DNA from: Candidatus Helarchaeota archaeon
GTDB lineage: Archaea; Asgardarchaeota; Lokiarchaeia; Helarchaeales; RDOG01
Reading direction: 5' to 3'
Assembly (NCBI GenBank): GCA_029838215.1
Contig: JALGVI010000001.1
Coordinates: 1 to 64,000 of the forward strand
Length of the DNA: 64,000 bases
Part shown: in pieces, positions 8,451 to 54,407 of the stretch
How positions within the stretch are numbered: position 1 is the stretch's first letter
Layout of the letters: each line of letters opens with the position of its first letter
Position numbers and translations under genes: made by a program
Notes under the pieces: model-generated
Databases searched by the model: none
The model's input: only the letters and a program-made list of their open reading frames with translations
Told to the model about the DNA's origin: nothing

Positions 8451-9986
8451 ATGAGTAAATCGTTGGTAAAACCGTCAACAATATATATCACCGAAGTTGA
8501 TCGCCACGTCAACAATAAAATTCATGCTTGTTATAAAAAAAGTCTATTTGCTGGCACTTTTAATCCAAAATTTAAGAATACGAAAGCCGAAAAAATCATG
8601 GTTGAAGAATATAAGAAGGCACTTGGTAAGGTAATTGGAGACAAGAAATACAAGAAAGCGGTCATTAAATACAATGATTTAATGATAATGAAGAATTTTC
8701 ATCCCTCAATTTTAAGTTTAGATCTAAGAGCATTCCTGAAAGCAGTTGACACATTCGATATTGAAGAAAAATATCTCATTCCAAAACCTGGTGGCATTCT
8801 CCCGATTTTTCATAATTTAAAAATGCTGAACATGACCAAGCTCATGCAAGGATTGGATGAATATAAAATTATTAACGGAAATCGGCTAAAATTGCAACCA
8901 TATTTGACAAACAACCCCGACGTTCCAAAAGTATTCATTCCCAAAATTTTCGATAGAAACACGCTATTCATCATTTTTAACGACATTAAAACAAATAGTT
9001 TCAATGGTGCCACGATTGCAACAAAAGTAGCTGCTGTTGGCACTACAGGAAAGCGCTTGACATATCATCGCACGCTAGATCCTGATTCTGACTCAAAAAA
9101 GAATCTATTTGGCACGTGGTTAACCCTATATTGCCAAATTCTTGAGAAGATTTGCACGAAAGTCGCCACGGTAGCAAACCTCAAATACCACAAGGAAGGA
9201 AGTGACGTTTGCCAATCGACCTGCACATTCTTCGCTTCCTATCCAAATGAGAAGCCAATCATCCTTTCAGGTGATGGCATAGTACAGATCGATTATGCAG
9301 GTGAGCTCATTATATTTGGAAAACCCAGTTCCAACGTGATGAAGGCTTATCACGACATGTATGGTGGATATCCCGAGGTCCTAATGGATGGTAAAAAGGC
9401 CGATGAGCAACTACTTGCCATCCATAATGATGGGTCAAACATCGGCTATAATTTCCCCACGATAAATTTGAAAAAATATGAAAAGGTTTTTCCGGGACTT
9501 ACTGTTGAAGAGGACCAACAATGCATGGATGGCTGCTCAGGGATGCTGGATTATTCCTTGCAGATGAATATAGCACTCGGACTCTATGATTATCCGCGTC
9601 CCTGCAAGAATCGAATTAGGATCATAGCAGGTAAACCATTAAATCCAAAACCAAAGAAAAATGGAGAAATTTTAATTGCTCACGGCAATTGTGCAATAAA
9701 AGCGTGTAAAAAAGCTAAAATCAAACCCGATATAAAATTCGCAGGTTGTCCCGTGGGACCGATCCCATCGATTGTCATAAACTTCCTCATGCCCGGCTTT
9801 CCACATACTAATGACATTCGTTCGACTTACTTGCAATACGTTCCTACAATCTTCTTCGATGACATTACAAATACGTGGAAAACGTGGAAACAAGTCATGG
9901 GACTCATGATGAGTGGAAGGAACCTCGTGAGCATGCTTGACTTGATAAAGAATGTAGGCATGTTTAAGACGCGTTTTCTCCTTTAA
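8451..9986 (+). CDS. Divergent DUF362-like Fe-S protein
   Basis: IPKP, DIKTN..GATIATK, DGIVQID resemble DUF362 motifs; C-terminal CMDGC / HGNC / GCP cysteine pattern. Confidence 0.55.
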   Translation: MSKSLVKPSTIYITEVDRHVNNKIHACYKKSLFAGTFNPKFKNTKAEKIMVEEYKKALGKVIGDKKYKKAVIKYNDLMIMKNFHPSILSLDLRAFLKAVDTFDIEEKYLIPKPGGILPIFHNLKMLNMTKLMQGLDEYKIINGNRLKLQPYLTNNPDVPKVFIPKIFDRNTLFIIFNDIKTNSFNGATIATKVAAVGTTGKRLTYHRTLDPDSDSKKNLFGTWLTLYCQILEKICTKVATVANLKYHKEGSDVCQSTCTFFASYPNEKPIILSGDGIVQIDYAGELIIFGKPSSNVMKAYHDMYGGYPEVLMDGKKADEQLLAIHNDGSNIGYNFPTINLKKYEKVFPGLTVEEDQQCMDGCSGMLDYSLQMNIALGLYDYPRPCKNRIRIIAGKPLNPKPKKNGEILIAHGNCAIKACKKAKIKPDIKFAGCPVGPIPSIVINFLMPGFPHTNDIRSTYLQYVPTIFFDDITNTWKTWKQVMGLMMSGRNLVSMLDLIKNVGMFKTRFLL

Positions 9987-11176
9987 TGAGGAGACTTCAA
10001 GCGGGCGATAAAATATCCCGTTGTATCGTGAATATCGGGATAAAATCGCTGATATTTCTCTTTTTCTAAGCCCATTTCTCCTTCAGTCCCAATAAAGATC
10101 GGCTGTTCGTCTAATTTCCAACTAAATTTCTCCTTACAATATTTGATGTTAAGCTCATTTTCTTCGGGTTCCATTGTGCAAGTCGAATAGACGATTACTC
10201 CACTCGGTTTTACGAGCCTTGCTGCTAAATGAAGGAAGAATTTTTGATAATTTGAATGATCCACGATGTTTCTTGTGGTTGTTGTGTCAAAAAGCTTGGG
10301 TCGGATTCCCAATGCCGAGCATGGGGGGTCCACGATCAAGCGATCGACTTTTCGTTCCAAATTTAACTCTTCAAGTTTCTTTTTAATATTCTTGGTCTGG
10401 TATATTTCGACATTTGTAATCCCTAATCGTTCGATATTTTTCTGAAGTTTTCGTGTTCGGGACGGTGAGCGATCTAGCGCGATGATTCGACCTTCATTCT
10501 TCATTAATTGAGCGATATGAGTTGTTTTACCGCCGGGAGCCGCACAAAGATCAACCACAAGTTCTCCCGGCTTTGGTGCTAGGACATAAGAAGCAATCAT
10601 TGCAGGTAACGATTGATTAAACCAATATCCATCAATAAAAAGAGAATGTTCTTTTAAATTAGGAGTTCTATACGGAGATTCTAATACTTTTATTCCGATT
10701 CCCTTCTTTTGTTGAAGCAAGTCTTTTGAGTTCATCAGAGCTATTCCGTATCCGACCAACCTTCCATGAGGATCGACAATTGAAACGGGATCGCCTGCAC
10801 TGATCTTTTCCACGCCAATCACGCCCGGTCCAAAAAGGTCGGCTCCAGTAAACACGGATTCTGCGGCAAATTTGGCGATACGAACCGTTTTTCCCCGATT
10901 TTTGATTTCAAATGGTCCTTCAATTGGAAAATAGAGAGCCTCGGAAAGAGTGGAATGAGATTGAACGTGAATTCCCTCTTTTTTTAAAATGGATTTGACT
11001 TTTTGAGTACTTGTTTTCAAGGTATTTACTCGAATGAAAAAATATTTTGATGGTTTGCTTAAAGCCTGAAGAATCGGGATGACCCGTTTACCATATCGCT
11101 TGTTAAACCTCGTTATCACGTCGGGTGTAAACGAAAAACGTTCTACTAAAACATTTAGCTCTTGTTCTGAAAGCAT
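9983..11176 (-). CDS. RsmB/NOP2-family RNA m5C methyltransferase with PUA domain (NSUN6-like)
   Basis: VFTGADLFGPGV PUA, DLCAAPGGKT, DPPCSALG (motif IV), YSTCT (motif VI); ATG11176 follows the upstream stop. Confidence 0.9.
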   Translation of the reverse strand: MLSEQELNVLVERFSFTPDVITRFNKRYGKRVIPILQALSKPSKYFFIRVNTLKTSTQKVKSILKKEGIHVQSHSTLSEALYFPIEGPFEIKNRGKTVRIAKFAAESVFTGADLFGPGVIGVEKISAGDPVSIVDPHGRLVGYGIALMNSKDLLQQKKGIGIKVLESPYRTPNLKEHSLFIDGYWFNQSLPAMIASYVLAPKPGELVVDLCAAPGGKTTHIAQLMKNEGRIIALDRSPSRTRKLQKNIERLGITNVEIYQTKNIKKKLEELNLERKVDRLIVDPPCSALGIRPKLFDTTTTRNIVDHSNYQKFFLHLAARLVKPSGVIVYSTCTMEPEENELNIKYCKEKFSWKLDEQPIFIGTEGEMGLEKEKYQRFYPDIHDTTGYFIARLKSPH

Positions 11177-37124: not shown

Positions 37125-37820
37125 TTGAAGCCAGACGTCTCGATTGTAATTCCCGCCTATAATGAAGAAAAGACAATATACAATTTAATCAAAGGTATTC
37201 ATGAAACGTTTAACTCGGGTTATGCCGAAATTATTGTCGTAGATGATGGTTCAACGGATAACACTACCAAATTAGCTGCAAAAATTCCAGGTATCAAAGT
37301 GTTGAAAAATGACAGAAATCTTGGCTATGGTGGTGCGATTCTTACGGGTATATTTGAAGCCAAAGGAGATATAATAGTAACCATTGATGGAGACGCGCAA
37401 AACAAGCCCAAAGAAATAAATTTACTCATTCAACCCATTTTAAAAAATGATTATGATTTTGTCGTTGGGGCTCGTCATAAGGGCATGACATTTAGTCCCA
37501 TTCCAATTTTTAAGCGGGTCGCCGAAACCGTCGTTCGTTTTGTGTTGAAATTCATGTATGGAATTGATATTTCGTACTCGCAAAGCGGCTTTCGTGCGAT
37601 GAAACGAAAGGTCTTACGTCGTATAATGCCCCTGTATGAGTATAAATTCGCTTTTAGCATGGAACTCTTAATGAAAACGGTTAAAAACGGGTTTCGGATA
37701 AAAGAAGTTCCCATTACGTTTATGGCCAGACCACACGGTTGTAGCCGTGTTAATGTCTTTAGGGATGGCTTAAGAATCATCTACGTGATGATAAAACACA
37801 TTTTAATGAAGGAAAAATGA
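37125..37820 (+). CDS. DPM1-like GT2 polyprenol-phosphate glycosyltransferase without TM anchor
   Basis: IPAYNEE, VVDDGSTD, N.GYG.A, DGDAQN.P, SQSGFRA, EVPI...R..G.S; no long hydrophobic segment. Confidence 0.85.
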   Translation: MKPDVSIVIPAYNEEKTIYNLIKGIHETFNSGYAEIIVVDDGSTDNTTKLAAKIPGIKVLKNDRNLGYGGAILTGIFEAKGDIIVTIDGDAQNKPKEINLLIQPILKNDYDFVVGARHKGMTFSPIPIFKRVAETVVRFVLKFMYGIDISYSQSGFRAMKRKVLRRIMPLYEYKFAFSMELLMKTVKNGFRIKEVPITFMARPHGCSRVNVFRDGLRIIYVMIKHILMKEK

Positions 37821-37822
37821 AA

Positions 37823-38488
37823 TTATTTTTCCGTGGACTCGTCTTTCTTTTCTTTCTTGTCAGGTTTATTATCGCTTATCGTGAAATAGATTAATAATAG
37901 GATGAGCAGACCGATGATAAAGATCACGACGTACTGTCCACCGAAAGAGGTTAACAATACTTGAGGCCACCCGATAAATGGAATGTTCAAGATCATTCGT
38001 CCGATCACTTGTCGCCTACCACTATAGAAATATGGAGTGGGATAAGTGTCTGCGGCATCATTATTGTCTCCTTTTGTCTTAAACCATTTGCCATTATAAT
38101 AGCTGTTATTATTTGCGGGTTGATTAATGATGGGCACGATGTCATTATCTTCATAAATTTCAATGACTCGATGGATGACAGGATATCCCGGTTTGGAACC
38201 ACCCCAAAAATCAGTATAAAAAATAATAATGTCACCGACTTGTACTTGATCTTCCGGAATGCCTTGAACAACTATGAAATCACCCACGTTGAGCGTTGGA
38301 ACCATGCTTGTAGAAATTACGACAGTATAAGGCATCTCGGTTTGAAGCGTGATCATTGAACCGAAAAAAAATCCTCCGACAGTTCCAAAGATAGTGCCGA
38401 TGATCAGGATTAGGACAAGGAACTTCTTCACGAGTGAGTTTTTAAAAAAATGTTTGAGTCGGTTTTTCGCCGTCATTTTTTCTGTCAT
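37823..38488 (-). CDS. Signal peptidase I (archaeal Sec11-type)
   Basis: VISTSMVPTL..GD (Ser), VIHRV (His), TKGDNN..D, IPFIGW. Confidence 0.92.
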   Translation of the reverse strand: MTEKMTAKNRLKHFFKNSLVKKFLVLILIIGTIFGTVGGFFFGSMITLQTEMPYTVVISTSMVPTLNVGDFIVVQGIPEDQVQVGDIIIFYTDFWGGSKPGYPVIHRVIEIYEDNDIVPIINQPANNNSYYNGKWFKTKGDNNDAADTYPTPYFYSGRRQVIGRMILNIPFIGWPQVLLTSFGGQYVVIFIIGLLILLLIYFTISDNKPDKKEKKDESTEK

Positions 38489-38509: not shown

Positions 38510-39745
38510 TTAATCGCGTTCGGGTTTCACGCGACGAATATCTCTCGTAATGAACATGTCTGCAAGTAATGCAAATAGAAGAATTTGAATTCCCAAGATC
38601 AAGAGAATTGCACACAACATGACAAGTCCCACGTGGTATGCTCCAATGCCTGCCGCAGTGAGAAAGAGATAATATGCTCCGACCAAAATGCCCAATGCCA
38701 TAAAAACAACGCCAAATGAACCAAAAAGGGATAGCGGATGATAATCACGGTAAATTCGTAATCCTATTACGGAGACATTTAAGCCATAATCTGCAGGATC
38801 TGATATTAGACGGGATTTTCCAAAAGGTCTCTTGAGGAATTTCACGGGAACATCGATGAGTCGAAACCCTTCGTAAGCCGCTCTGATGATCATCTCCTGA
38901 GTATAGCTATAATTAGACGTGATGGGAATTTCTTCTAGGATTTCCTTACGGAAAGCACGAAAACCCGTTGCAGAATCAGTTAAATGAAGGTCGGTAAAGC
39001 GGTTAGTAGCCCATGTAAAGACTTTATTTCCGAGTTTTTTAACGAAACTCATTCTTTCAATAGACCCTTTTTCCATGAATCTAGAACCCAGTGCCAAATC
39101 TGCTTCATTTGACAAGATTGGTTGCAATAATTTTGGAATTTCATCAGGGTCATATTGTCCATCCGCATCAATCGTTATGACGATGCTTGCATCGAGGCGA
39201 AGTGCATTTTTAAACGCTTTTTTCATGGTCACTCCCAATCCCATTTGATAATCATTCGAAATCACCAAAGCTCCCGCATTTTTTGCAACTATAGCGGTCT
39301 TATCAGTAGAGCCATCATTTATTACAAGCACTTCTGTAACGTGTTTAAGCGTTCCTTTTATAACTGTACCAATAGAACCTTCTTCATTGTGTGCGGGGAT
39401 GATGGCAACGATTTTCGGCTTATCCATGAAATTTGGTAACTTCGTTGAAACCAAATAGGGCGCCTTCCTCTTGCGGTAAAAAAGCCTGCTAATGTAATGA
39501 AAAATTAAAGTTGCAAACCCACCTAAGAAACACCACCAAGAAAACATGATGAAGAGAGAAAGTACGTTAAATACAGGCCAAAATATGAGCGGCCAAGTAA
39601 ACGCCAAAATGATATAGTGCAATAAATTTGGATAAAAGATGAATATGTCGATGAAAAGAAATATGATCCCAATTAATAGAGACCCTACCAGCACTAGAAA
39701 TGCCAATGCTAACAGGGACCATGCAATGCTCCTGAGAATAGGCAT
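38510..39745 (-). CDS. DPM-like GT2 with N- and C-terminal TM segments
   Basis: IPAHNEE, NDGSTD, DADGQY.P, DSATGFRA; about 90 hydrophobic N-terminal residues and 2 C-terminal TMs. Confidence 0.85.
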   Translation of the reverse strand: MPILRSIAWSLLALAFLVLVGSLLIGIIFLFIDIFIFYPNLLHYIILAFTWPLIFWPVFNVLSLFIMFSWWCFLGGFATLIFHYISRLFYRKRKAPYLVSTKLPNFMDKPKIVAIIPAHNEEGSIGTVIKGTLKHVTEVLVINDGSTDKTAIVAKNAGALVISNDYQMGLGVTMKKAFKNALRLDASIVITIDADGQYDPDEIPKLLQPILSNEADLALGSRFMEKGSIERMSFVKKLGNKVFTWATNRFTDLHLTDSATGFRAFRKEILEEIPITSNYSYTQEMIIRAAYEGFRLIDVPVKFLKRPFGKSRLISDPADYGLNVSVIGLRIYRDYHPLSLFGSFGVVFMALGILVGAYYLFLTAAGIGAYHVGLVMLCAILLILGIQILLFALLADMFITRDIRRVKPERD

Positions 39746-39815: not shown

Positions 39816-41015
39816 ATGAAAGAAAAAAACAATCTCTCAATATTGATGATTACGCACAAGACAGAATCTTTTGTAAGGGACATTGCACGGTTTGTGCAGA
39901 AAAATGGACACGATGTATATTTATATGGTCCAATGCCATCCAAGAAAGATCTAAAACCTTTGCTTTCTTCGGGTGTAAAGTTGTTTCCCATGAATATAAA
40001 AGGTATTCTAACATCTGGAGAAAAAATTGGTGACAATTTTTTGAGTTCTCCAAGAAAGGAAATGATTAGGTTCGTTTTTGCTTCATTGAAGACACTCAGT
40101 AGAATTTTATTGACATATCGAGTTGATGTAATTCATGCTCATTGGGTACTTCCATCAGGATTCATTGCAGGTATTCTTTCACGCATCTTCAGGATCCCTG
40201 CCATCGTAACAGCACATGGACGTTCAATTTATTTGAATCCTCAAGTTGGTTTTATCGTGCCGCAAAAGCGCTATGCGAGAATTTTACTTGAAATGTCATT
40301 TCTAAATTTAAAAAAAATAGTAGCTGTAAGCAGAGATGCCATTTTTCATGCTCTCCAGCGCGGTGCGAAACAGGATAGGTGCGTGGTAATTTATAACGGA
40401 ACTGATGAACAATTATTTAATCCCGATGTTTCAGGGATGAACGTGAAATCAAAATGGGGACTGAAAAAGGATTTCGCACTTGTTGCGGTGAGAAAATTCT
40501 ACAAGCGAAAAGGATTACAATATTTAATTCAGGCACTCCCAGGCGTCATTGATGAAATCCCAGACGTGAAGCTAATACTTCTCGGGGATGGTCCATTAAA
40601 AAAAACCTTAGAACGCCAAGTTAAAGAATTAAACATTTCTAATCACGTGATTTTTACGGGAATGGTTCCCAATAGAAAAGTTCCAGAGTATTTAGCTGCA
40701 GCTGACGCGTGCTTGGTTCCTTCTTTAGAAGAAGGTTTCGGTGTTGCAGCTGTCGAAGCGATGGCAATGAAAAAACCCTTGATTAGCACGCAAGCGGGAG
40801 GATTAAGAGAAGTCGTTGATGAAAAAACGACAATACTTGTTCCTCCCCGAGATTCCCAGGCCATTGCTCAAGCAATCATTCGCTTGTGGAAGAACCCAGA
40901 AATGAGAAAAAAACTCGGTGAAGCCGGACGTAAAAAAGTTCTCCAAAAATTCAACTGGAACCGAGCTGCAAGAGAATATATTAAACTCTATAATCAAATA
41001 CTCAAGCATTCATAA
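39816..41015 (+). CDS. GT4 family glycosyltransferase
   Basis: IHAHW, EEGFGVAAVEAMA..KP.I.T..GG. Confidence 0.92.
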   Translation: MKEKNNLSILMITHKTESFVRDIARFVQKNGHDVYLYGPMPSKKDLKPLLSSGVKLFPMNIKGILTSGEKIGDNFLSSPRKEMIRFVFASLKTLSRILLTYRVDVIHAHWVLPSGFIAGILSRIFRIPAIVTAHGRSIYLNPQVGFIVPQKRYARILLEMSFLNLKKIVAVSRDAIFHALQRGAKQDRCVVIYNGTDEQLFNPDVSGMNVKSKWGLKKDFALVAVRKFYKRKGLQYLIQALPGVIDEIPDVKLILLGDGPLKKTLERQVKELNISNHVIFTGMVPNRKVPEYLAAADACLVPSLEEGFGVAAVEAMAMKKPLISTQAGGLREVVDEKTTILVPPRDSQAIAQAIIRLWKNPEMRKKLGEAGRKKVLQKFNWNRAAREYIKLYNQILKHS

Positions 41016-42341
41016 CGTAGTCTTTTTTCTTTTAGCAAGTAGAAGATTTTTCTGAGCAGAGACTGTTGCTCTTGCAAGAAGTAGCCATCCTTCTAGATCA
41101 TTATTTAGAGCAAAGGAAGTCACGCAGACATGGTTTAAGAATTTTCGTGCCATCTTTAATTTTTCTTCTTCTAAAACTAATTCTTGTGCGTCATTCACGT
41201 TCATTAATGCAGAAAGTAGCAGACACGCAGTTACGTAAACATAAAACCTTGGGGAGGCATATCCCCGATTAAAGATTCCTGTAATAATTCTACGAAAACA
41301 TCCATTTTTAATTTGGAATTTTAGATATTCATGAGCCTGAATGAACCGCGACAGAAGAGGTCCAACTAAACGAACCACGGCACGTTTATCCTTCAAGTAG
41401 TAAGATATATATTCTGAATAGAAATTGATTTTGAGATAATTGAAGAGATCAAAATTTACCATCTTTCCAATTAATTCACCTTTTGTGGCATGAGTTTTGA
41501 TCATATAACCCAAAACCGTGAGGAGATCTTTTTTTGTTTCCATCCAAACGCTTGCTAAGCCATTTTCAAAAGGACTTGAGATTGGTTTCAGTTTATAAGA
41601 AGTACAGGTTTTTACTTTCATTGTAAGATCAGGTATTTTTTCTTGAAGATCTGGCATTTTTCGTGAAAGTACTTGATCAAATAGTGAAGCTCGTTCTTCA
41701 TAAGTAGGGGCATAGAAATTCCCTGCTAAGGAAAGAGCAGTACAGATTTCGACATACGTCTTTGCACATTCATAAATCAGAGACTGTCCTTTCTTCGAAT
41801 CTGGAGTGATTTCAGAATCCCAAGGATTATTTTCTAAAAGTCCAATTAATTTGTTACAAAGAATTCGAATTCCGCTTACCCTTGCAATTCTTGCGGATGT
41901 TAGAGGGATGAGATGAAGTAAATTCTCACCATGTAAAATTAATCCATTTTTCTTCAACTCATAATTGCTCAGGTCAGGAGGGAGCTTGCGTAACTTTCGG
42001 CATGAAATGAACTCGATATTTATGTGAAAATCACCAGGGGCATGACCTTCATACCATTGGCTTGATATTCCCAAGATTGAATTCAAAGAATCAATTAACT
42101 GCTTGTATTTCGTTGAACTGATCTGCTCATCCGTGATCACGACCAAATCATAATCCTTCAGGGGAATAACCTGATTTGGTTCCTTAAAATAGACAGACCC
42201 TTCCCCACGAGCAAAACCTCCAGTTAATATAATAGCATTAACATTCACGATTCGAGTCCTAATCTCACCCACGATTCTTTGTAGTTGATTTTCAATGTAT
42301 TGATCAACTACCGGATCATCAAATTTTGAATATTTTCCCAT
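41010..42341 (-). CDS. Pol-beta superfamily nucleotidyltransferase-like protein with helical C-terminal domain
   Basis: ILTGGFARGEG...KDYDLVV (hG[GS]...DhD); ATG42341 after GGAG. Confidence 0.65.
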   Translation of the reverse strand: MGKYSKFDDPVVDQYIENQLQRIVGEIRTRIVNVNAIILTGGFARGEGSVYFKEPNQVIPLKDYDLVVITDEQISSTKYKQLIDSLNSILGISSQWYEGHAPGDFHINIEFISCRKLRKLPPDLSNYELKKNGLILHGENLLHLIPLTSARIARVSGIRILCNKLIGLLENNPWDSEITPDSKKGQSLIYECAKTYVEICTALSLAGNFYAPTYEERASLFDQVLSRKMPDLQEKIPDLTMKVKTCTSYKLKPISSPFENGLASVWMETKKDLLTVLGYMIKTHATKGELIGKMVNFDLFNYLKINFYSEYISYYLKDKRAVVRLVGPLLSRFIQAHEYLKFQIKNGCFRRIITGIFNRGYASPRFYVYVTACLLLSALMNVNDAQELVLEEEKLKMARKFLNHVCVTSFALNNDLEGWLLLARATVSAQKNLLLAKRKKTTL

Positions 42342-42363
42342 CAACACTCCTCTTTTTCGACAA

Positions 42364-43593
42364 TCAATTGAATGGTTTTCCTGGAAGTTTTAATTCATTT
42401 TGAAGGTTCATTAATTTCAAAATAGTTGGAACGAAGTCAATGAATTCTCGGTGTTCTTCATTTTTGGTAGAAGTGTTTTGCCCATCCTGACAAAGGAAGA
42501 ATGGATCTAATTCGGAATTCTTGACGGGATAACCGTGCATTCCCTTGATAAAATTTTTACCTTGATAATAATTAGGGGTTAGGAGCGTTCCCTTATCCGC
42601 TAAAAAGATTAAATTTCCATTTCGATCACGCATTTCTGGAGAAAAATTTAAGTGATACTCCTGCAATTCATCACCATTTAACACGTGTCCTCCTTTTAAA
42701 TTTGATAATTCTTCAGCAATTTCGCCAATCACCCTTGTATCTCGCACAAAAAATCGCCACAAAATAGAATCTAAGAAAGAATCAAATTTTGATCCGTGTT
42801 TTTTCCTAAGAGCTTTTAATATTGGTTGAACGGGAAGAGCTTGAGTTACATTCGTCATGCCGTGGTCCGAAAATACGATAAATGAAGGATTTTTAAGCAT
42901 TTTCTCAAAACCCTGCATAATATATTTGACTTGAGCATCAGTTTTCCTCAAGCATTCACGAGTTTGTCTTGAGCGTGTTCCCGTTCGATGTTGAACACCA
43001 TCTAAATTAAAAAACCTAATGAAATAAAAATCTCTTCTTGTATTGCTTCCCAAAATCTTCATGACTGCTTTCATCGTATCGGAGTCACCGTGAACGTTGG
43101 GGAAGTTTACAATTTCATATGAAATCTTATTTACGCGAAATACATCAAAGAGAGTCTTGACACGTCCCAAAGCACCCTCTTGATCAATCCGCTTTGGCAT
43201 GGCAAACGCAAATTTATGCAATTCATCCCATGGAATTAACGTGGTGCGAGGAAACTGTGAAAATCCATATATTTTCTTTGTAAGATGGCAGATAGGGGCG
43301 GTTAGGATTTTTCGGAGAGTCAAGTTTTTGATCTTGTCGAGAAAAATGTCCTGAATCCCGGTCATTAATGGATTTTTTGTCCATTGAAATTCTGAATGAG
43401 CAGGAGAATATTGAAAATCTGTCCAAATACCGTGAATCTCAGCATGTTGACCTGAAAATAATGTCGGTTCAATCCCTCGAAATGATAATAAGGGAGTTAT
43501 CCTTCCAAATATTGCTTTTTCAGAAAGATTGGAAAGGAAGGGAGTATTTTGATGCGTGATCTGCGAAAAACCCATTGCATCTACCATGATCAT
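42364..43593 (-). CDS. Alkaline phosphatase superfamily / nucleotide pyrophosphatase-phosphodiesterase
   Basis: VDAMG, LDGVQH, FSDHGM, GMHGY metal-binding motifs. Confidence 0.82.
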   Translation of the reverse strand: MIMVDAMGFSQITHQNTPFLSNLSEKAIFGRITPLLSFRGIEPTLFSGQHAEIHGIWTDFQYSPAHSEFQWTKNPLMTGIQDIFLDKIKNLTLRKILTAPICHLTKKIYGFSQFPRTTLIPWDELHKFAFAMPKRIDQEGALGRVKTLFDVFRVNKISYEIVNFPNVHGDSDTMKAVMKILGSNTRRDFYFIRFFNLDGVQHRTGTRSRQTRECLRKTDAQVKYIMQGFEKMLKNPSFIVFSDHGMTNVTQALPVQPILKALRKKHGSKFDSFLDSILWRFFVRDTRVIGEIAEELSNLKGGHVLNGDELQEYHLNFSPEMRDRNGNLIFLADKGTLLTPNYYQGKNFIKGMHGYPVKNSELDPFFLCQDGQNTSTKNEEHREFIDFVPTILKLMNLQNELKLPGKPFN

Positions 43594-46038: not shown

Positions 46039-47209
46039 CGTACTTCTTCTTACGGCTTATAACTATCCAAGCGCAGGGGGAATCTCTTCTTACATTGCAG
46101 TCCTGTCGAAAAGTCTGCAAAAAAGAGGCGTTAATACAGAAATTATTTCATTTAATTCAATGCATCTGTTCACTCAAATCTTTTTAAAAATTCTTTATAG
46201 CCTCCATCATGTTTCCCAACGTTTTTTTTATCCTTTATATCTGATTTGCTTGAAACGTGCCATTATCCTGCACCTGTTGATCCATCTCAAGTCTACAAGA
46301 CATGACATCATTCATGCTCAGGATCCACTGAGCCTTCAATGCGCGCGTGTTCTTAAATACCTGCAAGGGACGAAATTGGCTTTGACCGTGCACGGTTTCC
46401 TTGCTGCAGAGACGTTGATAAAATTTAAATCAAGTAGCCTCTTTCTAAAGAATTTTCTACTTGCTGAAGAGAAAAAAGCCTACTCCCTTGCCGATCAAAT
46501 AACGTGCGTGGAAGCAAGACGGAAAAAACACGTCTTAAAATTGATCAATAATTCACGAAAGGTAATTTCTCAAGCTAACTTCATTGATGGTTCAATGTTC
46601 AAGAAAAAACCCGCAAAATTTTTCGATGCCGCATTGCCGACCTTTCGATTCAAGATTCTCAATCCTAAACGACTGATTGAGTCTTCGGATCTTTCAACGT
46701 ATTTAGATGCTGCTAATCGCGTTCAACAGGTCCGCAACGACATTGCATTCATTTTAACGGGTTCTGGTCATTTAAAGAAGCAAATTCGAGAAGAAATTCG
46801 AAAGCGAAAATTAAAAAATGCATTTCTTTTCGATCCGATCCCCCATCATGTCATGCCCGTGGCATATAATTCCGTTGATTTAATAGTCATCACGTCTAGA
46901 CCAATAGGGGGGGTTACAGAAGGAATTAGCATTTCAATTCTTGAAGCAATGGCTTCTGAAAAACCAGTTATCGCTTCAGCCGTTGGAGGCTCACTTTCAA
47001 TAATTTCCGATGGCCAAGATGGTTACCTAATACCTCCAAGCGACCCCGTAACTCTTGCAGAAAAAATCCTTGAACTCATCGAAAACAAGACTCTCCGAAT
47101 CGAAATGGGGCGAAATGCTCGAAAGAAAATTCTTCTCAAATACGAACGAGATGAAGCAATAGAACGGATCTTGATGATATATCAGAAAACGTTGCAAAAT
47201 ACCTACTAG
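45971..47209 (+). CDS. GT4 family glycosyltransferase (start uncertain)
   Basis: YP..GGISSY...L, EGISISILEAMA..KPVIASAVGG. Confidence 0.88.
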   Translation: MKPVGNTWLTFTRCFRGRVKRINVLLLTAYNYPSAGGISSYIAVLSKSLQKRGVNTEIISFNSMHLFTQIFLKILYSLHHVSQRFFYPLYLICLKRAIILHLLIHLKSTRHDIIHAQDPLSLQCARVLKYLQGTKLALTVHGFLAAETLIKFKSSSLFLKNFLLAEEKKAYSLADQITCVEARRKKHVLKLINNSRKVISQANFIDGSMFKKKPAKFFDAALPTFRFKILNPKRLIESSDLSTYLDAANRVQQVRNDIAFILTGSGHLKKQIREEIRKRKLKNAFLFDPIPHHVMPVAYNSVDLIVITSRPIGGVTEGISISILEAMASEKPVIASAVGGSLSIISDGQDGYLIPPSDPVTLAEKILELIENKTLRIEMGRNARKKILLKYERDEAIERILMIYQKTLQNTY

Positions 47210-48327
47210 GAAAGGGACTTAAAAATTTCAAGATATCGAGAAAAATTTTTCCTCAAATCGTGATCGCGTCGAATTTTAGCATCATCAAACAATTTCACTT
47301 TTTCTCTAAATGATGGATCATTTACAATATCTTTTACATGTCGAGCAACCTGTTCATGATCACCAACATCAACGAGATACCCATTTCTCCCGGGAAATAT
47401 TAATTCGGGTATTCCTCCCACCCGAGTTGCAATGATGGGAATCCCTCTTGCCATTCCTTCTAACAAAACCAATCCCACGCCTTCATTCTTGCTGGTTAAC
47501 AGTAATACATCTGCCAAATCGTGATAATCCTTCAACATCCAAGGCGGAAGCGCCCCTAAAAAAAAGACACTATTGTCCAAACGCAATTTTTTCACCATTT
47601 TTTTTAATTTCTTCCTTTCAGGACCGTCCCCGATTATTAAAAGGCTAATGTCAATTCCATCTTTCACGATCAATTCCAGGGCTTTTATAACCACGTCGAC
47701 CGCTTTAATCGGCACTAACCTGGCGACGCACGACATCACGAATTCGGTCTTGACTCCCAATTTCTGTTTCAGGCGCCTTGAGTCTTTTTGAGAAATTGAT
47801 CTCGAACCGGCTCGAACGATACCGTGAGGGATGACGATGATTTTTTCAGGACGAGCGACGTGAACCAGTGCCAGATGTCTTAAGAACTGGTTGGGCGCGA
47901 TGACGCGATCCGCCTGAGAAAGAATCCATTTCGTGATAAAGCCGAACGTCTTTGAAAATCGGTACAATCCACCGCCGTGCGTGGTTATTATTAGTGGAAT
48001 CTTGAAAAACTTCTTGATCAATGCTGCCGAAAACCCTTCCGCAAGAACATCATTCGCCACCATCAATGACGGAAGCCCTCTCTTATTCACTTTTATAAAA
48101 TTCCAAAAATAACTCAAGACAAGTGAAATGAAACGAATTACCGGCAGATTAAGGAAAAATATTCCATTAGTGCCGGGCGACCGAGAAGAACGAAAACAAG
48201 ACTTGCGGACAAATACTTGAACACTTAACCCATTCCTCTCGAAGAAATCCCTTAATAACCCGGTATAGATCTCTTGACCACCAATATCAGGAGGATAAAT
48301 ACCTCTTGAGAACATGACAAGCTTCAT
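47206..48327 (-). CDS. GT4 family glycosyltransferase
   Basis: YPPDIGGQE, EGVGLVLLEGMA.G.PIIATRVGGIPE. Confidence 0.9.
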   Translation of the reverse strand: MKLVMFSRGIYPPDIGGQEIYTGLLRDFFERNGLSVQVFVRKSCFRSSRSPGTNGIFFLNLPVIRFISLVLSYFWNFIKVNKRGLPSLMVANDVLAEGFSAALIKKFFKIPLIITTHGGGLYRFSKTFGFITKWILSQADRVIAPNQFLRHLALVHVARPEKIIVIPHGIVRAGSRSISQKDSRRLKQKLGVKTEFVMSCVARLVPIKAVDVVIKALELIVKDGIDISLLIIGDGPERKKLKKMVKKLRLDNSVFFLGALPPWMLKDYHDLADVLLLTSKNEGVGLVLLEGMARGIPIIATRVGGIPELIFPGRNGYLVDVGDHEQVARHVKDIVNDPSFREKVKLFDDAKIRRDHDLRKNFSRYLEIFKSLS

Positions 48328-48545
48328 TTCAACTAATAATCTAATGCTATCCATAAAAAATCATTTCATGTTCCAAAGCAATTCTTGACGTGACTCAAAA
48401 TTAAAATATTCAGCTTTGAGAAGAATCCTCCGTGTAAACACGCGAACAATTAAATAGAACCCTTGAGCTCGATAATAAATCAGATGCTTTTTAAATCCCT
48501 TCGCACGATATCCGATTAGATACAAGCCCGAAACGAAAAGGCGAG

Positions 48546-49976
48546 ATGAAAAAGGGAATTAATGGTCGTGAGAGAAAAATGAGCGAATTCATTAAAATCG
48601 CAGAGAGAAGGTGGATCGACAAAGAACAACACCATTTTATTTATGAGAAAAGTTATACACCAGAACAGGATGAAGTACTTAAACGACAAGGTGTGGACGT
48701 TTGTGCCGTGACTGAAGTGCGCGGTAGAGAAATACATAACAGAATCGAGTTTAGAAAAGGATCAAGTGTCGCCGTCGTGCCTTGTCTCCACATTGCCGTC
48801 CTGCAGGTAATACATAACCCCGATTCGGAAAGTGGTTTTGAGGAAGTTTCGACCGAAGAACACCCCGACCTGCAGCAGTTGCTCTCGCCAGAGGATCACC
48901 ATTTTGCACTAAGATCAATGGTGCAGTGCCTGATAGAGAGGGGGATCCAAGACACGATGCTCGAATCCTTCAGGCGGGAACGCGAAACGGGCAAGGAACC
49001 GCTAGACTTCAACCACCTGATGCGCATGCAGATCGTAAAGGCACTCATGGAAATTGCCCCTGACGAAACGAAAGAGATGGCATTATTCCTGCTTGAATAC
49101 GTAACAAGTGGCAACCTCGAAAGAGTCAAAACATTTGATGAAGATTTTCATTATGTATTCTTGAGCCCGAAATTTGACTTTGCAGACTTGAAACGGTTGG
49201 ACAAAATCTGTGGGGGAATCCGAGAATTGAACGATGATCTCAAGCTAGATCTCCTTGGCAAAAGAAAACTCCCACTTTGGGCTTTAGAGAAACTGGCAGG
49301 AGATGAAGATCTCTGGATTCGCACCGAGATCGCAAGGAGAAAACACCTGCCAGAGTCGCTAGTTGTAGAATTGGCAGGAGACAAAGATCTCTGGATTCGC
49401 TGCGAGATCGCAAGGAGAGAAGACCTGCCAGAGTCGCTGGTTGTGAAATTGGCAGGAGACGAAGCTTGGGAGGTTCGTTGTGAGATCGCATGGAGAGATG
49501 ACCTGCCAAAGCCGCTGGTTGCAAAATTTGCAGGAGATGAAGATCAGATGGTTCGTCGTTGGATCGCAAGTAGAAGAGACCTGCCAGAACCGCTGGTTGT
49601 AAAATTGGCAGGAGACGAAAATCCCGAAGTTCGCAGTAAGATCGCAAGGAGAGAAGACCTGCCAGAGCCGCTGGTTGTGAAATTGGTAGGAGACGAAAAT
49701 CCCGAAGTTCGCAGTAAGATCGCAAGGAGAGAAGACCTGCCAGAGCCGCTGGTTGTGAAATTGGCAGGAGACGAAGATCCCGAAGTTCGCAGTAAAATCG
49801 CAAGGAGAAAACACCTGCCAGAGTCACTGGTTGTGAAATTGGCAGGAGACGAAGATCCCGAGGTTCGGCGAGCAATCGCAGGACGAAGAGACCTGCCAGA
49901 GGTATTGGTGAAAATGTTAGCAAATGACGAAGATGGAGATGTTCAGAGCGAGATCGAATTGAAACACGATCGCTGA
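48546..49976 (+). CDS. Protein with unknown N-terminal domain and C-terminal LRV/HEAT-like repeats
   Basis: 26-aa units LAGDEDPEVRxxIARRxDLPExLVVK. Confidence 0.8.
   Translation: MKKGINGRERKMSEFIKIAERRWIDKEQHHFIYEKSYTPEQDEVLKRQGVDVCAVTEVRGREIHNRIEFRKGSSVAVVPCLHIAVLQVIHNPDSESGFEEVSTEEHPDLQQLLSPEDHHFALRSMVQCLIERGIQDTMLESFRRERETGKEPLDFNHLMRMQIVKALMEIAPDETKEMALFLLEYVTSGNLERVKTFDEDFHYVFLSPKFDFADLKRLDKICGGIRELNDDLKLDLLGKRKLPLWALEKLAGDEDLWIRTEIARRKHLPESLVVELAGDKDLWIRCEIARREDLPESLVVKLAGDEAWEVRCEIAWRDDLPKPLVAKFAGDEDQMVRRWIASRRDLPEPLVVKLAGDENPEVRSKIARREDLPEPLVVKLVGDENPEVRSKIARREDLPEPLVVKLAGDEDPEVRSKIARRKHLPESLVVKLAGDEDPEVRRAIAGRRDLPEVLVKMLANDEDGDVQSEIELKHDR
49293..49976 (+). repeat. Coding tandem repeat, 78-bp unit, 8 full copies plus a partial ninth
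   Basis: Unit starts at 49293, 49371, 49449, 49527, 49605, 49683, 49761, 49839, 49917. Confidence 0.92.
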
Positions 49977-50100
49977 TTTACGGATTTAAATCGTGAGGCA
50001 GTACTGACAATCCTTTTAATTGATAAATCAATTTAGGGAAAGAAAGGCATTCTCTTCCATCAATGAAACTTTTAAAACAAAATTCCTTGAATGCAAGGAG

Positions 50101-50135
50101 AATAGATAAATAAAAATAAAAATAGAAAAAAATAG
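50101..50135 (-). terminator. T-rich tract downstream of the 50149 gene
   Basis: Minus strand reads tttttttctatttttatttttatttat after the stop. Confidence 0.45.
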
Positions 50136-50148
50136 GGATAGTATTTGT

Positions 50149-50469
50149 TTATTTCTCTTCTTCCTCATCCTCGAGCCCTAATTCTTCAAGCTCTTCTAAT
50201 GGTACGGGCGGTGGAGTCGTCAACATGGTCCATCCTATCCACATAGCTATGCCCAAGATTAATATCACGACGATCCACATTGGTAGAATGACGTAGAACA
50301 CCCAATGTGGTACCAGGAATGGTACGCTATATCGTAAATACGTGAACACTGGTACTATGACGGATCCCGCTTGTGTGACCAAGTGAGTAAGATATCCGAT
50401 TGAAAGGTAGATCAGCAAAACCAGTGCTACGATGAAGATCAGAGCTCCGTATATTTTGTCGCGTTGCAT
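50149..50469 (-). CDS. Small two-TM membrane protein, PIG-P/DPM2-like (proposed)
   Basis: MQRDKIYG + TM, then PHW..V.LPMW + TM ending IGWTMLTTPPP and an acidic tail. The CDS is clear; the family assignment is inference. Confidence 0.6.
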   Translation of the reverse strand: MQRDKIYGALIFIVALVLLIYLSIGYLTHLVTQAGSVIVPVFTYLRYSVPFLVPHWVFYVILPMWIVVILILGIAMWIGWTMLTTPPPVPLEELEELGLEDEEEEK

Positions 50470-50787
50470 TTTTTACACGAATCCTCAGAGTATGTCGTGT
50501 CTAACCATCAAAAAAAGAGCGACGGTCGAGTTCCTTACATACCGACTTGGTTTTTGAATATTAATTATATCAAGATAACATGAGATATAGGTTCTCACGT
50601 TATTGAAGTTTGTATTATAAATTTCGTATTATAAGTTTTATTGTGTTTTTGCATGGAATGGCTGGTTGGGGATTTGGGATGTTATTGGTTGTGTTTTTGG
50701 ATTATTGGGGGGGTTTCATTGATATTATAAATGTTTTTGCATAGAAATAGGGTAATATTATTGGATGGGGATGCGTGAGTGTTTATA

Positions 50788-51144
50788 TTAGATTTTTGAT
50801 TTCTTTTTCTTTATTTTTACTTTGAAGTTTGTGTCTTCGATATCTTCCAGGGGGATTTCGGGTTTTGCAGTCATTTTTTGCCATCCGATTCGCATCATGA
50901 TTATAAGAATGATTGATACAGCGATCCACATTGGTAGTATTACAAAAAATGACCAGTGCGGGATGAATCCATATATTTTAGGGACCAGTCCAGGTACTAC
51001 ATGGAAGATGATTTGATCCCATGGAGGGAAAATGTTTTCTCCTGCGAGGGTTACCAGTTGGGTGATGTATCCCAATGAGAGATAGATTAAAGCGGTTATT
51101 ACGACTATGAATACAAGGAGACCGTATATTTTATCGCGTTGCAT
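50788..51144 (-). CDS. Paralogue of the 50149 small two-TM protein
   Basis: Shares MQRDKIYG, IYLS.GY.T.LVT.AG, PHW.F.VILPMW, IGW; basic tail. Confidence 0.6.
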   Translation of the reverse strand: MQRDKIYGLLVFIVVITALIYLSLGYITQLVTLAGENIFPPWDQIIFHVVPGLVPKIYGFIPHWSFFVILPMWIAVSIILIIMMRIGWQKMTAKPEIPLEDIEDTNFKVKIKKKKSKI

Positions 51145-51292
51145 GTTTTTTCACGTGTCCACCAATTTTCATAGAACGGTGGGCATTTCATATTATAAGT
51201 TTAACTAGCATGTAAATGAAATGATTTGAAAAATAATACTTATTAGGAAAATAAGATGTATTTCAAGTGGACCAAGTTTAGAGGAGTGAACC

Positions 51293-52423
51293 ATGAAGTC
51301 AGGTTTGGATGATTTGGACAACATGTACAAGATTGATCCTGCAGGAATGACAGGTGTCATTGAGAGGTTTAGGGATAATCTTGAGCGTGCTAGAAAGATT
51401 GTAGATGAGTGGGAGCGTTCGAATGCAGATATATTGGCGAAGTGGAAGGAGTTCGTGTCGGATATTACTCATATTATTGTTGTTGGCATGGGGGGATCGG
51501 CGATCGGTGGAAATTTAATTATTGATTATTTGTACGACCGATTATCCATTCCTGTTTCAGTATTTCGAGAATATCGTCTCCCTAAATTTGTGAATAAGAA
51601 TCATTTAATCATTTTTGTTAGTTATTCGGGAAATACGGAGGAGACGCTTAGTAGTTTTGCGGATGCCATTTCTCGAGATTGTCATGTCTTGACGATTACT
51701 TCAGATGGGATGCTCGAGCGATATTCTCGGCGTTTCAACATTCCTTTTATAGATCTTCCGGAGGGTCTTCCTCCACGTGGTGCGGTGCCTTTTTTGTCCT
51801 TGCCTTTGTTTTTAGTCTTAGAGAAGTTGGGATTTGTTTCTGGCATTTCAAGTGAGTTGATGGAAGTTCTTGATGTCATAGACAAATTAATGGAGAAAAT
51901 CAATTCTAGGGTTCCAACTTCTCGGAATTTGGCGAAGCAGATCGCCCTTAAAATACATGAAACGATTCCGATAATTTATGCGCCTCCAGGTTATGCGAGC
52001 ATTGCGCGGCGTTATAAATGTCAGATTAATGAGAACTCCAAGAATCCGAGTTATTGGGATGTATTTTCAGAATTGAATCACAATGAAGTGGTTGGTTGGG
52101 AGCATCCTTCGGCTCTTACGAAGAATTTTAGCGTGATCTTGTTGCGTGCCAGCGACGAAACCGAATCGATTAAAGCAAGAATTGAATTGACAAGAAAGAT
52201 CATGCTTGAGCCAGCGGTCAAGGAGATCATTGAGATTAATGCGATGGGCAAGTCAAAGTTATCATCGCTCTATTCATTAATGGTAATCGGGGATTTCATT
52301 TCGTTGTATTTAGCGGTATTAAATGGTGTTGATCCCATGCCAGTGAATAGCATTAATCGGTTGAAGAAGGAATTGAAAGATCGAGTGAATCTAATCGAAA
52401 AAATTGAAAAAACCCTGCTTTAA
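51293..52423 (+). CDS. Bifunctional phosphoglucose/phosphomannose isomerase (SIS family)
   Basis: GMGGSAIGG, SYSGNTEET, K.QINENSK, ELNHNE.VGW. Confidence 0.93.
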   Translation: MKSGLDDLDNMYKIDPAGMTGVIERFRDNLERARKIVDEWERSNADILAKWKEFVSDITHIIVVGMGGSAIGGNLIIDYLYDRLSIPVSVFREYRLPKFVNKNHLIIFVSYSGNTEETLSSFADAISRDCHVLTITSDGMLERYSRRFNIPFIDLPEGLPPRGAVPFLSLPLFLVLEKLGFVSGISSELMEVLDVIDKLMEKINSRVPTSRNLAKQIALKIHETIPIIYAPPGYASIARRYKCQINENSKNPSYWDVFSELNHNEVVGWEHPSALTKNFSVILLRASDETESIKARIELTRKIMLEPAVKEIIEINAMGKSKLSSLYSLMVIGDFISLYLAVLNGVDPMPVNSINRLKKELKDRVNLIEKIEKTLL

Positions 52424-52697
52424 GTAGATTCATTCATCGGTACGTGAATGGACATACTTGATTGAGATGGGGAACGGAATTTCATCTTGATATATAAAGA
52501 AGGAGGAACAAAGCAAAAAATATAAATTCATTCTTTACTTTTGCACGTTATAAAATTTAATGTACCCTGAGGTAACAAAATCAGTTTGGAGCGAAAAAAA
52601 AGAACGATTTCACTTAAATGTCCCAAAAATGTGGAAGTTCGAGTCGCTTGATAAACGATGTAGAAATGAACGATGACGCAATGAGAATATTCGTGAG

Positions 52698-53114
52698 TTG
52701 GAAAGTTTGAGTAAGAGATTTAAGTATCGCGGTTATTCAATGGAAGAATTGGTAACTTTGCCCATGGATGAATTTGTCAAGTTAATCCCTTCAAGGCAGC
52801 GCCGTTCCTTGAAAAGAGGACTTCCCAAACGACAACAGAAGTTGCTTCAAAATCTACGACGTGCAAAGAAAGCCCTGAAAAAATCCCGGAAGGTCGTGGT
52901 AGTACGCACTCACGTGAGGGATATGATCATCACTCCTGAGATGGTCGGGCTTACCGTTGGCGTTCATAATGGAAAGGAGTTCATCAACGTCGCGATCACG
53001 CCAGAACACATTGGACACTACCTTGGTGAATATGCTCCGACGAACAAAAGAGTTTCTCACGGAAATCCAGGAATTGGTGCAAGTCGAGGATCGATGTATG
53101 TCCCCTTGAAGTGA
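52698..53114 (+). CDS. rps19: 30S ribosomal protein uS19
   Basis: FKYRG, RRSL.RG, RTH.RDMII.PEMVG, GHYLGE, GASRGS. Confidence 0.97.
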
Positions 53115-53714: not shown

Positions 53715-54407
53715 ATGCCAGCAAAGGAACATTTTATTACTCGTAGGATTAAAAAAACTCAAGTTGATGAATATTTCGAGAAGGAATTAGAAAAAGCAGG
53801 ATATTCACATATTGACATTCAAAAAACACCGTTGGGTACGCGCGTGATCGTTTTTGCGGCTCGTCCGGGTATTGTTATTGGGAAAAGAGGTAAAAATGTC
53901 AGGCAAATGACGCAGACCCTTGAGGAAGTTTATAACATCGAGAATCCACAGATTGAAGTTGCTGAGATCGAGAACCCCGAGCTTGATGCTCGAGTCATGT
54001 CGAAGCGATTGGCAATGAAGCTCGAGAAGGGAATCCATTATCGCAGAGCAGCATATTCGGTTCTTCGGCGCGTGAAGAGTGCCGGAGCAAAGGGAATTGA
54101 GATCACGATAAGTGGAAAGATAACAAGCCATCGTGCTAGATATAAGAAGTTTCGCGAGGGTTTCGTTGCAAAATGCGGAGAACCCGCGTTGTTATACGTG
54201 AGCCAAGGGATCGCCTACGCGATCATGAAAAAAGGTGTTATTGGCGTCAAGGTTAAGATCATGCATGATGCAGAATTGCTTCCCAATCAAGTCAAGATTA
54301 AATTGGACTTGAAGGAAAATATTTGTCAGAATTGCGGAGCAGAAGTTGCACCAGGAACGGTGACTTGTAAAGAATGCGGTGCAACCTTAATCACGGAATT
54401 AAATTAA
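53715..54407 (+). CDS. rps3: 30S ribosomal protein uS3 with C-terminal zinc ribbon
   Basis: AGYS...KTPLGT, RPG.VIG..G, GA.G.EI.ISGK, G..GVKV.I; tail CQNC...CKEC. Confidence 0.97.
   Translation: MPAKEHFITRRIKKTQVDEYFEKELEKAGYSHIDIQKTPLGTRVIVFAARPGIVIGKRGKNVRQMTQTLEEVYNIENPQIEVAEIENPELDARVMSKRLAMKLEKGIHYRRAAYSVLRRVKSAGAKGIEITISGKITSHRARYKKFREGFVAKCGEPALLYVSQGIAYAIMKKGVIGVKVKIMHDAELLPNQVKIKLDLKENICQNCGAEVAPGTVTCKECGATLITELN

Follow-up and report, generated by a model that had tools for sequence, protein, structure and literature searches.

The 64,000-nucleotide stretch of DNA analysed here, referred to as the window, opens contig JALGVI010000001.1 of a Candidatus Helarchaeota archaeon (assembly GCA_029838215.1, positions 1 to 64,000 of the forward strand). 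Beside a glycan gene island it carries a tandem pair of genes, P0001 and P0002, for small hairpin proteins with two transmembrane (TM) segments and a likeness to DPM2 and PIG-P, which in eukaryotes are part of the endoplasmic-reticulum glycosylation and glycosylphosphatidylinositol (GPI)-anchor machinery. An original prediction, made from the letters of the DNA and its open reading frames (ORFs), had proposed that the pair may represent a prokaryotic precursor of these accessory subunits.

The tandem pair and its archaeal family

The products of P0001 and P0002 are 52% identical (BLASTP, E 1e-32). In each, the opening residues MQRDKIYG run into a hydrophobic helix, and a second block further along, PHW..(V/F)ILPMWI, leads into another helix. 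Hydropathy gives two TM segments for each protein, and the AlphaFold2 model computed from the family alignment (mean predicted local distance difference test score, pLDDT, 84) has helices at residues 3-33 and 56-84, with a further short helix in the loop and another in the tail. ORFs, alignment, hydropathy and model thus bear out the two paralogous two-TM proteins of the original prediction. Its proposal that the duplication takes in 5´ flanking DNA stands only for the immediate vicinity of the start codons. Over their first 26 nt the coding regions differ at a single position (25/26 identical), and some 10-20 nt upstream are alike (..TT[C/G]GTG..AAAAA[A/C]ATG), but no similarity is evident further upstream. 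From its N-terminus P0001 runs through TM1, the loop and a TM2 with WxxVILPMW into an intact tail, WIGWTMLTTPPPVPLEELEELGL, and an acidic end. P0002 is like it in the N-terminus and hairpin, and ends in a degenerate tail, IGWQKMTAKPEIPLEDIED, with TAKPEIPLEDIED where the family has TTPPPVPLEELE, and a Lys-rich terminus.

The two proteins belong to a large archaeal family. A search of 5.8 billion proteins returned about 100 near-length homologues, all from Asgard metagenome-assembled genomes (MAGs) and almost all unnamed, and profile search raised the number to about 2000. Where names are given they are 'hypothetical protein', 'transcriptional regulator' and similar, as vague as had been anticipated. 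The family is carried by 340 of 400 Asgard genomes (one genome per species) and by 84 of 90 high-quality ones, nearly always as one copy per genome. Outside Asgard it occurs in MAGs labelled Bathyarchaeia, in one case on a 732-kb contig. A further locus labelled 'Bathyarchaeota' (L171) was rejected as such; the label is wrong, and the locus belongs to a Sigyn-type Asgard genome, in the same place as G282. The family is ancient, nearly universal and normally single-copy in Asgard archaea, and is present in Bathyarchaeia as well.

Three features mark the family in the alignment, namely an N-terminal motif (x-[RK]-D-K-[IL]-Y-G), an invariant Pro of TM2 within W-A-V-I-L-P-I-W-L, and, as its hallmark, a near-invariant tail following helix 2, WIGWTMLTTPPPVPLEELE. 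The tail aligns as W-I-G-W-T-M-L-T-T-P-P-P-V-P-L-E-E-L-E, the conserved peptide ending in …WTMLTTPPPVPLEELEELGL, and an acidic or Lys-rich stretch comes after it. With the V position left free, W-I-G-W-T-M-L-T-T-P-P-P-x-P-L-E-E serves as the family criterion. This peptide is better conserved than the helices. Invariant columns include D4, G8 and P63, and the interhelical loop ranges in length from some 20 to 70 residues. P0001 (E 1.4e-41 with the family hidden Markov model) has all three features; P0002 (E 4.9e-32) shares the N-terminal motif and the TM2 block, but its tail is degenerate.

Longer forms are confined to six proteins, in which hairpin and tail are followed by a DUF4332/helix-hairpin-helix (HhH) domain; no Rosetta-stone fusion of the hairpin to a glycosyltransferase was found among them. 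These metagenomic fusions (P0190-P0195, 289-293 aa; e.g., L090 6001-6882 and L091 4601-5482) carry an WIGWTMLTTPPPKPIEE tail on the hairpin, which a Pro/Glu-rich linker joins to the C-terminal DUF4332/HHH_5 domain. Their neighbours, an N6/N4 DNA methylase and small ORFs, are uninformative.

Second copies of the hairpin gene occur in the order to which the window genome belongs and, weakly, in one further family. A small tree pairs every second copy with the first copy of the same genome and gives it a long branch (1.44 for P0002 vs 0.11 for P0001), and the tail is degenerate in every second copy. The long branch and the degenerate tail therefore identify P0001 as the conserved housekeeping copy and P0002 as a recent, lineage-specific, fast-evolving duplicate that is relaxed or re-purposed. 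The tandem pair in the window is an ordinary lineage-specific duplication of a family gene. The two copies found in family f15 were considered as a forerunner of the split between DPM2 and PIG-P. This was unsupported, since one copy matches DPM2 weakly and the others match nothing.

Table 1. Positions of the hairpin genes and of other features of the window.
Feature	Position	Strand	Size	Evidence
P0001, canonical copy of the DPM2/PIG-P-like two-TM hairpin	50149..50469	-	106 aa	ORF and translation
P0002, divergent paralogue	50788..51144	-	118 aa	ORF and translation
Polyprenyl-phosphate-type GT2, TM-less	37125..37820	+	231 aa	Pfam GT2
Signal-peptidase-like S26 gene	37823-38488			
GT2 with TM segments	38510-39745	-	411 aa	
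ORF in the glycan island	41010-42347	-	445 aa	no Pfam match at E<=1e-4
Type I phosphodiesterase/nucleotide pyrophosphatase	42364-43593			
Nearest GT4 glycosyltransferase, island edge	47206..48354	-		Pfam Glycos_transf_1 / Glyco_transf_4
LRV/HEAT-repeat protein between island and pair	48546..49976	+	476 aa	Pfam LRV, E 1.7e-25
Bifunctional-type PGI/PMI (SIS + bact-PGI_C), divergent from the pair	51293..52423	+		Pfam bact-PGI_C, E 3e-50
rpS19, first gene of the S19-L22-S3-L29... ribosomal protein operon	52698..53114	+		Pfam Ribosomal_S19
uS3	53715-54407			C-terminal Pfam Zn_Ribbon_1

Kinship with DPM2 and PIG-P

DPM2 is the regulatory subunit of the eukaryotic type-II dolichol-phosphate-mannose (Dol-P-Man) synthase and an enhancer of the GPI-GlcNAc transferase (GPI-GnT), of which PIG-P (Gpi19) is a subunit. 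The TM-less Dol-P-Man synthase of the human type requires DPM2 and DPM3. Relatives of the window proteins match the Pfam models of both hairpin subunits, for which the gathering cut-offs are 27.3 bits (DPM2, PF07297) and 39.3 bits (PIG-P, PF08510). Among 53 aligned family members, 18 match PIG-P (best E 5e-11) and 18 match DPM2 (best E 4e-9). P0062 passes both cut-offs over its full length, marginally for PIG-P (39.8 bits) and more clearly for DPM2 (32.6 bits), and its alignment to the PIG-P model extends to model position 101 of 121. The DPM2 cut-off is also passed by L056, from another lineage (42.3 bits), P0071 (29.7 bits) and P0054 (29.0 bits), and further relatives score 25-37 bits on the PIG-P model. 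For these relatives, the E-values of all other Pfam families are worse by about six or more orders of magnitude. The window proteins are tied to the Pfam-positive subset by hhalign, with a probability of 99.8% (E 3.8e-29) for P0001 and 98.4% (E 5e-15) for P0002.

The likeness to DPM2 extends to several features. Both are small two-TM hairpins with D-x-x-x-G just ahead of TM1, a Y-Y-T-like stretch in TM1 and W-A-x-x-x-P in TM2; members of several Asgard lineages score above the gathering threshold over the full model, and mannose-pathway genes recur beside the archaeal gene. Unlike the family, DPM2 is not known to carry a long near-invariant cytosolic tail (TTPPPVPLEELE and acidic run). Other differences are the archaeal loop, which varies from 20 to 70 aa, the lack of a detected DPM3 and the scores of the window proteins, which fall below the cut-off. 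The conserved cytosolic segment that follows the hairpin is reminiscent of PIG-P, and YWALAIP, the same as the PIG-P TM2 consensus, is present in several family members from Asgard archaea. The tail motif itself is distinct from that of PIG-P, and other GPI-GnT subunits were not found.

On this evidence we consider homology of the family with DPM2/PIG-P highly probable. Because the window proteins score below the Pfam cut-offs, they are best filed as members of the archaeal sister family and not as DPM2 or PIG-P proper. The kinship proposed in the original prediction is thereby upheld by relatives that pass the Pfam cut-offs, by hhalign and by published work, in which PF07297 is listed with Asgard as sister lineage and the DPM2/PIGP duplication is placed before the last eukaryotic common ancestor and dated to 2.51 Ga (Kay et al., 2025, in Nature). 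Its novelty had been rated too high, as the Asgard origin of DPM2/PIGP is already tabulated there and the family extends beyond Asgard to Bathyarchaeia. The present analysis adds the near-universal single-copy status of the gene, the invariant cytosolic peptide of its product, its linkage to sugar enzymes and to S19, the fast-evolving second copy and the failure to find PIG-C among the genomes searched or a PIG-A domain or DPM3 in the window genome.

The original prediction had called for a structural match. With the AlphaFold2 model as query, Foldseek retrieved no PDB entry at E<=0.001; what came up were generic hairpins, ATP synthase c subunits for instance. No DPM2, PIG-P or Pyrococcus Dol-P-Man synthase (PfDPMS) chain emerged when the PDB was searched by sequence, whether from the family profile or from P0062, and NCBIfam gave only a sub-threshold BcsF match on TM1. 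Searches of the ESM Atlas by features and shape returned only same-family archaeal clusters, one of them auto-named DPM2-like, and generic hairpins. Anchored GT2s of the PfDPMS, GtrB and ArnC type, the 411-aa GT2 of the window among them, also place a helical hairpin beside a Dol-P-sugar synthase catalytic domain, the part for which a detached anchor would conceptually stand in. A GT2 fragment is one of the structural neighbours in the Atlas (TM-score 0.52). A descent of the hairpin from the C-terminal TM hairpin of such enzymes was nevertheless rejected, as there is no sequence relationship (hhalign probability 0.5%), and the family profile has no match to 5mlz in the PDB.

Gene neighbourhoods and a possible role as membrane dock

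In the window, an island of GT2, GT4 and flippase (Wzx) genes at about 29-48 kb precedes the pair, and a PGI/PMI gene and the S19 operon follow it (Table 1). A search for sequencing runs covering 49900-52500, RNA runs included, listed none. The glycosylation context described at the outset, with GT4s, an anchorless DPM1-like GT2 and a PGI/PMI, was confirmed by Pfam, a PDB match and a check for TM segments. The anchorless GT2 lacks any TM segment, and its best PDB match is 5mlz, the catalytic domain of the Pyrococcus Dol-P-Man synthase (residues 24-247, E 5e-23). TM-less GT2s of this type, 225-260 aa long, are common in Asgard genomes.

Gene neighbourhoods were surveyed at 48 loci from about 33 lineage groups and at 80 further named loci. 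At 24 of the 48 loci (11/33 lineage groups), S19 and the hairpin gene are separated by no more than about 0.1-5 kb. The hairpin gene is often directly upstream of S19 and co-directional with it, as in Helarchaeota, f2, f3 and 'Asgardarchaeia', with gaps of 136-282 bp; in Thorarchaeota a PMM and a TPR gene stand between the two. A hexose-phosphate enzyme is found within 8 kb in 15 of the 33 groups, and in six of these S19 is not in the vicinity. Four unrelated folds are represented, i.e. SIS-type PGI/PMI, which recurs in 7 surveyed loci, cupin PMI (with PfkB kinase), PGM/PMM and GlmS. The tightest co-directional neighbours, at 61-93 bp, are GlmS (directly upstream of the hairpin gene in two families), a GFO/IDH/MocA oxidoreductase, NAD-epimerases (two families) and, in a Lokiarchaeon, a GT4. 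The suggested link to sugar metabolism therefore holds over many Asgard lineages. The suggested link to GT4s fares worse, as these are adjacent only in the Hel/Loki class, share only 24-38% identity among themselves and with the window GT4, and are not clearly orthologous.

Some local arrangements deserve mention. In many Asgard genomes the ribosomal cluster begins at S19 (the window, L005, L007, L009), and L3-L4-L23-L2 were not found upstream of S19 in these clusters. The slot ahead of S19 holds the hairpin gene and sugar-phosphate enzymes, and the gene for RNase P subunit p29 lies inside the operon. In a Helarchaeota locus (L007 9516-10176), the match to uS3 is split (9516-9605 and 9643-10149) and the gene call is only 115 aa long, which may reflect a frameshift or assembly error. 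Freyarchaeia and Jordarchaeia (L041 5972-7447; L042 2546-3990; L188) have a long-loop hairpin of 140-148 aa in total, preceded by a co-directional CE4 polysaccharide deacetylase gene, with the genes for L40e and Sec61-beta a few kb downstream. In two Bathyarchaeia-labelled MAGs (L199 1176-3279; L151 895-3270), a short form of 89-93 aa is encoded directly downstream of threonyl-tRNA synthetase (ThrRS) and co-directionally. L199 also has, about 2.3 kb upstream and on the opposite strand, a gene for a CDP-alcohol phosphatidyltransferase.

Our preferred reading, the case for and against which we judge to be about evenly balanced, is that the hairpin may act as a DPM2-like, non-catalytic membrane dock for a cytoplasm-facing enzyme of lipid-linked sugar synthesis. 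From the basic N-terminus we infer that the protein starts in the cytoplasm, crosses the membrane twice and returns its tail to the cytoplasm. There it could dock or stabilise an enzyme that makes lipid-linked (dolichol-phosphate) sugars, the sugar most plausibly being mannose or hexosamine. The juxtamembrane N-terminus (x-[RK]-D-K-I-Y-G) and the invariant tail peptide (TTPPPVPLEELE) are the candidate binding sites.

Several observations weigh against this. The window proteins themselves are not recognised by the Pfam models: P0001 has no DPM2 or PIG-P match at E<=10, and P0002 has no DPM2 match at E<=10 and reaches only 7.7 bits (E 4.2) with PIG-P, below both cut-offs. The PIG-P model is moreover known to yield convincing-looking false positives through its two TM helices (Wong et al., 2010). 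A universal catalytic partner did not emerge. The anchorless 231-aa GT2 of the window, a candidate partner in the original prediction, is not co-distributed with the family; with this query it was found in only 79 of 121 Asgard genomes, and it is missing in families that possess the hairpin. The other short TM-less GT2 of the genome, a 256-aa protein on contig C62, was found in 5 of 121. DPM3 gave no match above noise in the window genome, in a search of low power whose model also rings in 11 control genomes. No glycosyltransferase family recurs beside the hairpin gene across the surveyed lineages, and sixteen lineage groups, about half of the 33, have neither sugar genes nor S19 nearby. Finally, the position of the gene behind ThrRS in Bathyarchaeia and at the head of the S19 operon in many Asgards would fit a general housekeeping gene equally well.

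The last point leads to the possibility of a housekeeping role outside glycosylation. The hairpin would then be a membrane adaptor, associated for instance with the ribosome, the translocon or targeting, and its invariant cytosolic tail would bind a cytosolic partner that is itself universally conserved. Ancestry of DPM2/PIG-P might then still hold, with the eukaryotic roles acquired later. The co-directional position at the head of the S19-L22-S3 operon, in Thorarchaeota as in the four groups named above, and that downstream of ThrRS in the two Bathyarchaeia MAGs are in line with it, and so are the near-universal single-copy distribution, the proximity of Sec61-beta and L40e in Freyarchaeia and Jordarchaeia and a tail whose conservation exceeds that of the helices, as a slowly evolving partner would lead one to expect. 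Weak matches to TMEM208/SND2 and EMC3 point the same way. We nevertheless think it unlikely. With gaps of 136-282 bp to S19, co-transcription is not evident, 22 of 33 groups lack the link to S19, and sugar-phosphate genes persist without S19 in six. The SND2 and EMC3 matches are far below their cut-offs and cover a TM and an acidic tail, and no known ribosome-binding motif was matched. Very unlikely, in our view, is the more specific proposal of a PIG-P-like subunit in an archaeal GPI-GnT-like complex built around a GT4 and making glucosaminyl-archaetidylinositol-type lipids. The post-TM2 segment is conserved as in PIG-P and unlike DPM2, and is included in the alignment of P0062 to the PIG-P model; a co-directional GT4 lies 84 bp downstream in the Lokiarchaeon, with GT4s also adjacent in Hel-type loci; and GlmS in two families and the CDP-alcohol phosphatidyltransferase in one Bathyarchaeial locus would suit such a pathway. 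However, GT4s are abundant in any archaeal glycan island, and the adjacent ones are limited to one class and are poorly alike. PIG-C (PF06432) was found in none of 151 Asgard genomes, and neither PIG-C nor the PIG-A domain (PF08288) was found in the window genome, which is 94% complete (both searches lacked a positive control genome). The GPI-GnT precursor of the original prediction is unsupported because these searches found neither PIG-C nor the PIG-A domain.

It has also to be asked whether the likeness to DPM2 and PIG-P is convergent, arising from two simple TM helices and carrying no functional information, in which case the family would be an unrelated archaeal two-TM protein, possibly holin-like. 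PF08510 was named as a model prone to exactly this TM-driven error (Wong et al., 2010, 2011), fold searches gave generic hairpins only, and Holin-X (PF07332, Phage_holin_3_6), which is comparable in size and likewise has two TM segments, is the top Pfam match of P0001 as a single sequence (E 6e-4) and matches 12 of 53 members. The published warning was the reason for a shuffle test, in which the PIG-P consensus helices printed in Wong et al. (2011) were scored on the family profile against 20000 shuffles each. The TM1 consensus lands at G8 (z 2.8; 231/20000 shuffles reach the score) and the TM2 consensus at the W-A..P block (z 4.8; 7/20000), both collinear with the expected positions. The likeness to PIG-P thus exceeds composition. 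The models of DPM2 and PIG-P, which are mutually related, match in register and over their full length in several lineages, far ahead of other two-TM families, and the non-hydrophobic landmarks D..YG before TM1 and WA...P in TM2 coincide with the invariant D4, G8 and P63. Holin-X scores only 20.4 and 13.3 bits with the window proteins, below its cut-off of 28.4 bits, and the gene has no phage or lysis context, being a chromosomal, near-universal single-copy gene amid housekeeping and sugar genes. An independent phylogenomic pipeline arrived at the same assignment (Kay et al., 2025). We regard convergence as improbable.

If the hairpin is indeed a membrane dock, a broader scenario can be drawn, which we offer tentatively and hold to be rather doubtful as a whole. 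Asgard archaea and Bathyarchaeia may already possess a dolichol-phosphate-sugar synthase split in the eukaryotic (type II) manner, with the hairpin, through its invariant TTPPPVPLEELE tail, keeping a soluble GT2 at the membrane. The gene might be kept beside sugar-phosphate enzymes and the ribosomal operon because the supply of lipid-linked sugar is tuned to secretory protein synthesis, and DPM2 and PIG-P would be two specialisations of the ancestral hairpin. Where DPM2 and PIG-P came from matters for the question of how eukaryotes built their endomembrane system. The invariant cytosolic peptide could serve directly as bait, and the single-copy status, the tail peptide and the sugar-enzyme neighbours make the ancestral function testable in cultured Asgard strains.

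Other features of the window

The LRV/HEAT-repeat gene between the island and the pair is absent from the other hairpin neighbourhoods surveyed. The C-terminal half of its product consists of about ten tandem LRV/HEAT-like repeats (..LAGDEDPEVRSKIARREDLPEPLVVK..), and several spurious antisense ORFs overlap the gene. Within the island, the 411-aa GT2 has about three N-terminal and two C-terminal TM segments and adjoins the TM-less 231-aa GT2 and the signal-peptidase-like S26 gene, so that anchored and anchorless polyprenyl-phosphate-type GT2s share one island. The 445-aa ORF without a Pfam match adjoins the type I phosphodiesterase/nucleotide pyrophosphatase gene. In the ribosomal operon, the uS3 protein of the window carries a C-terminal zinc-ribbon (residues 204-225, E 1e-5).

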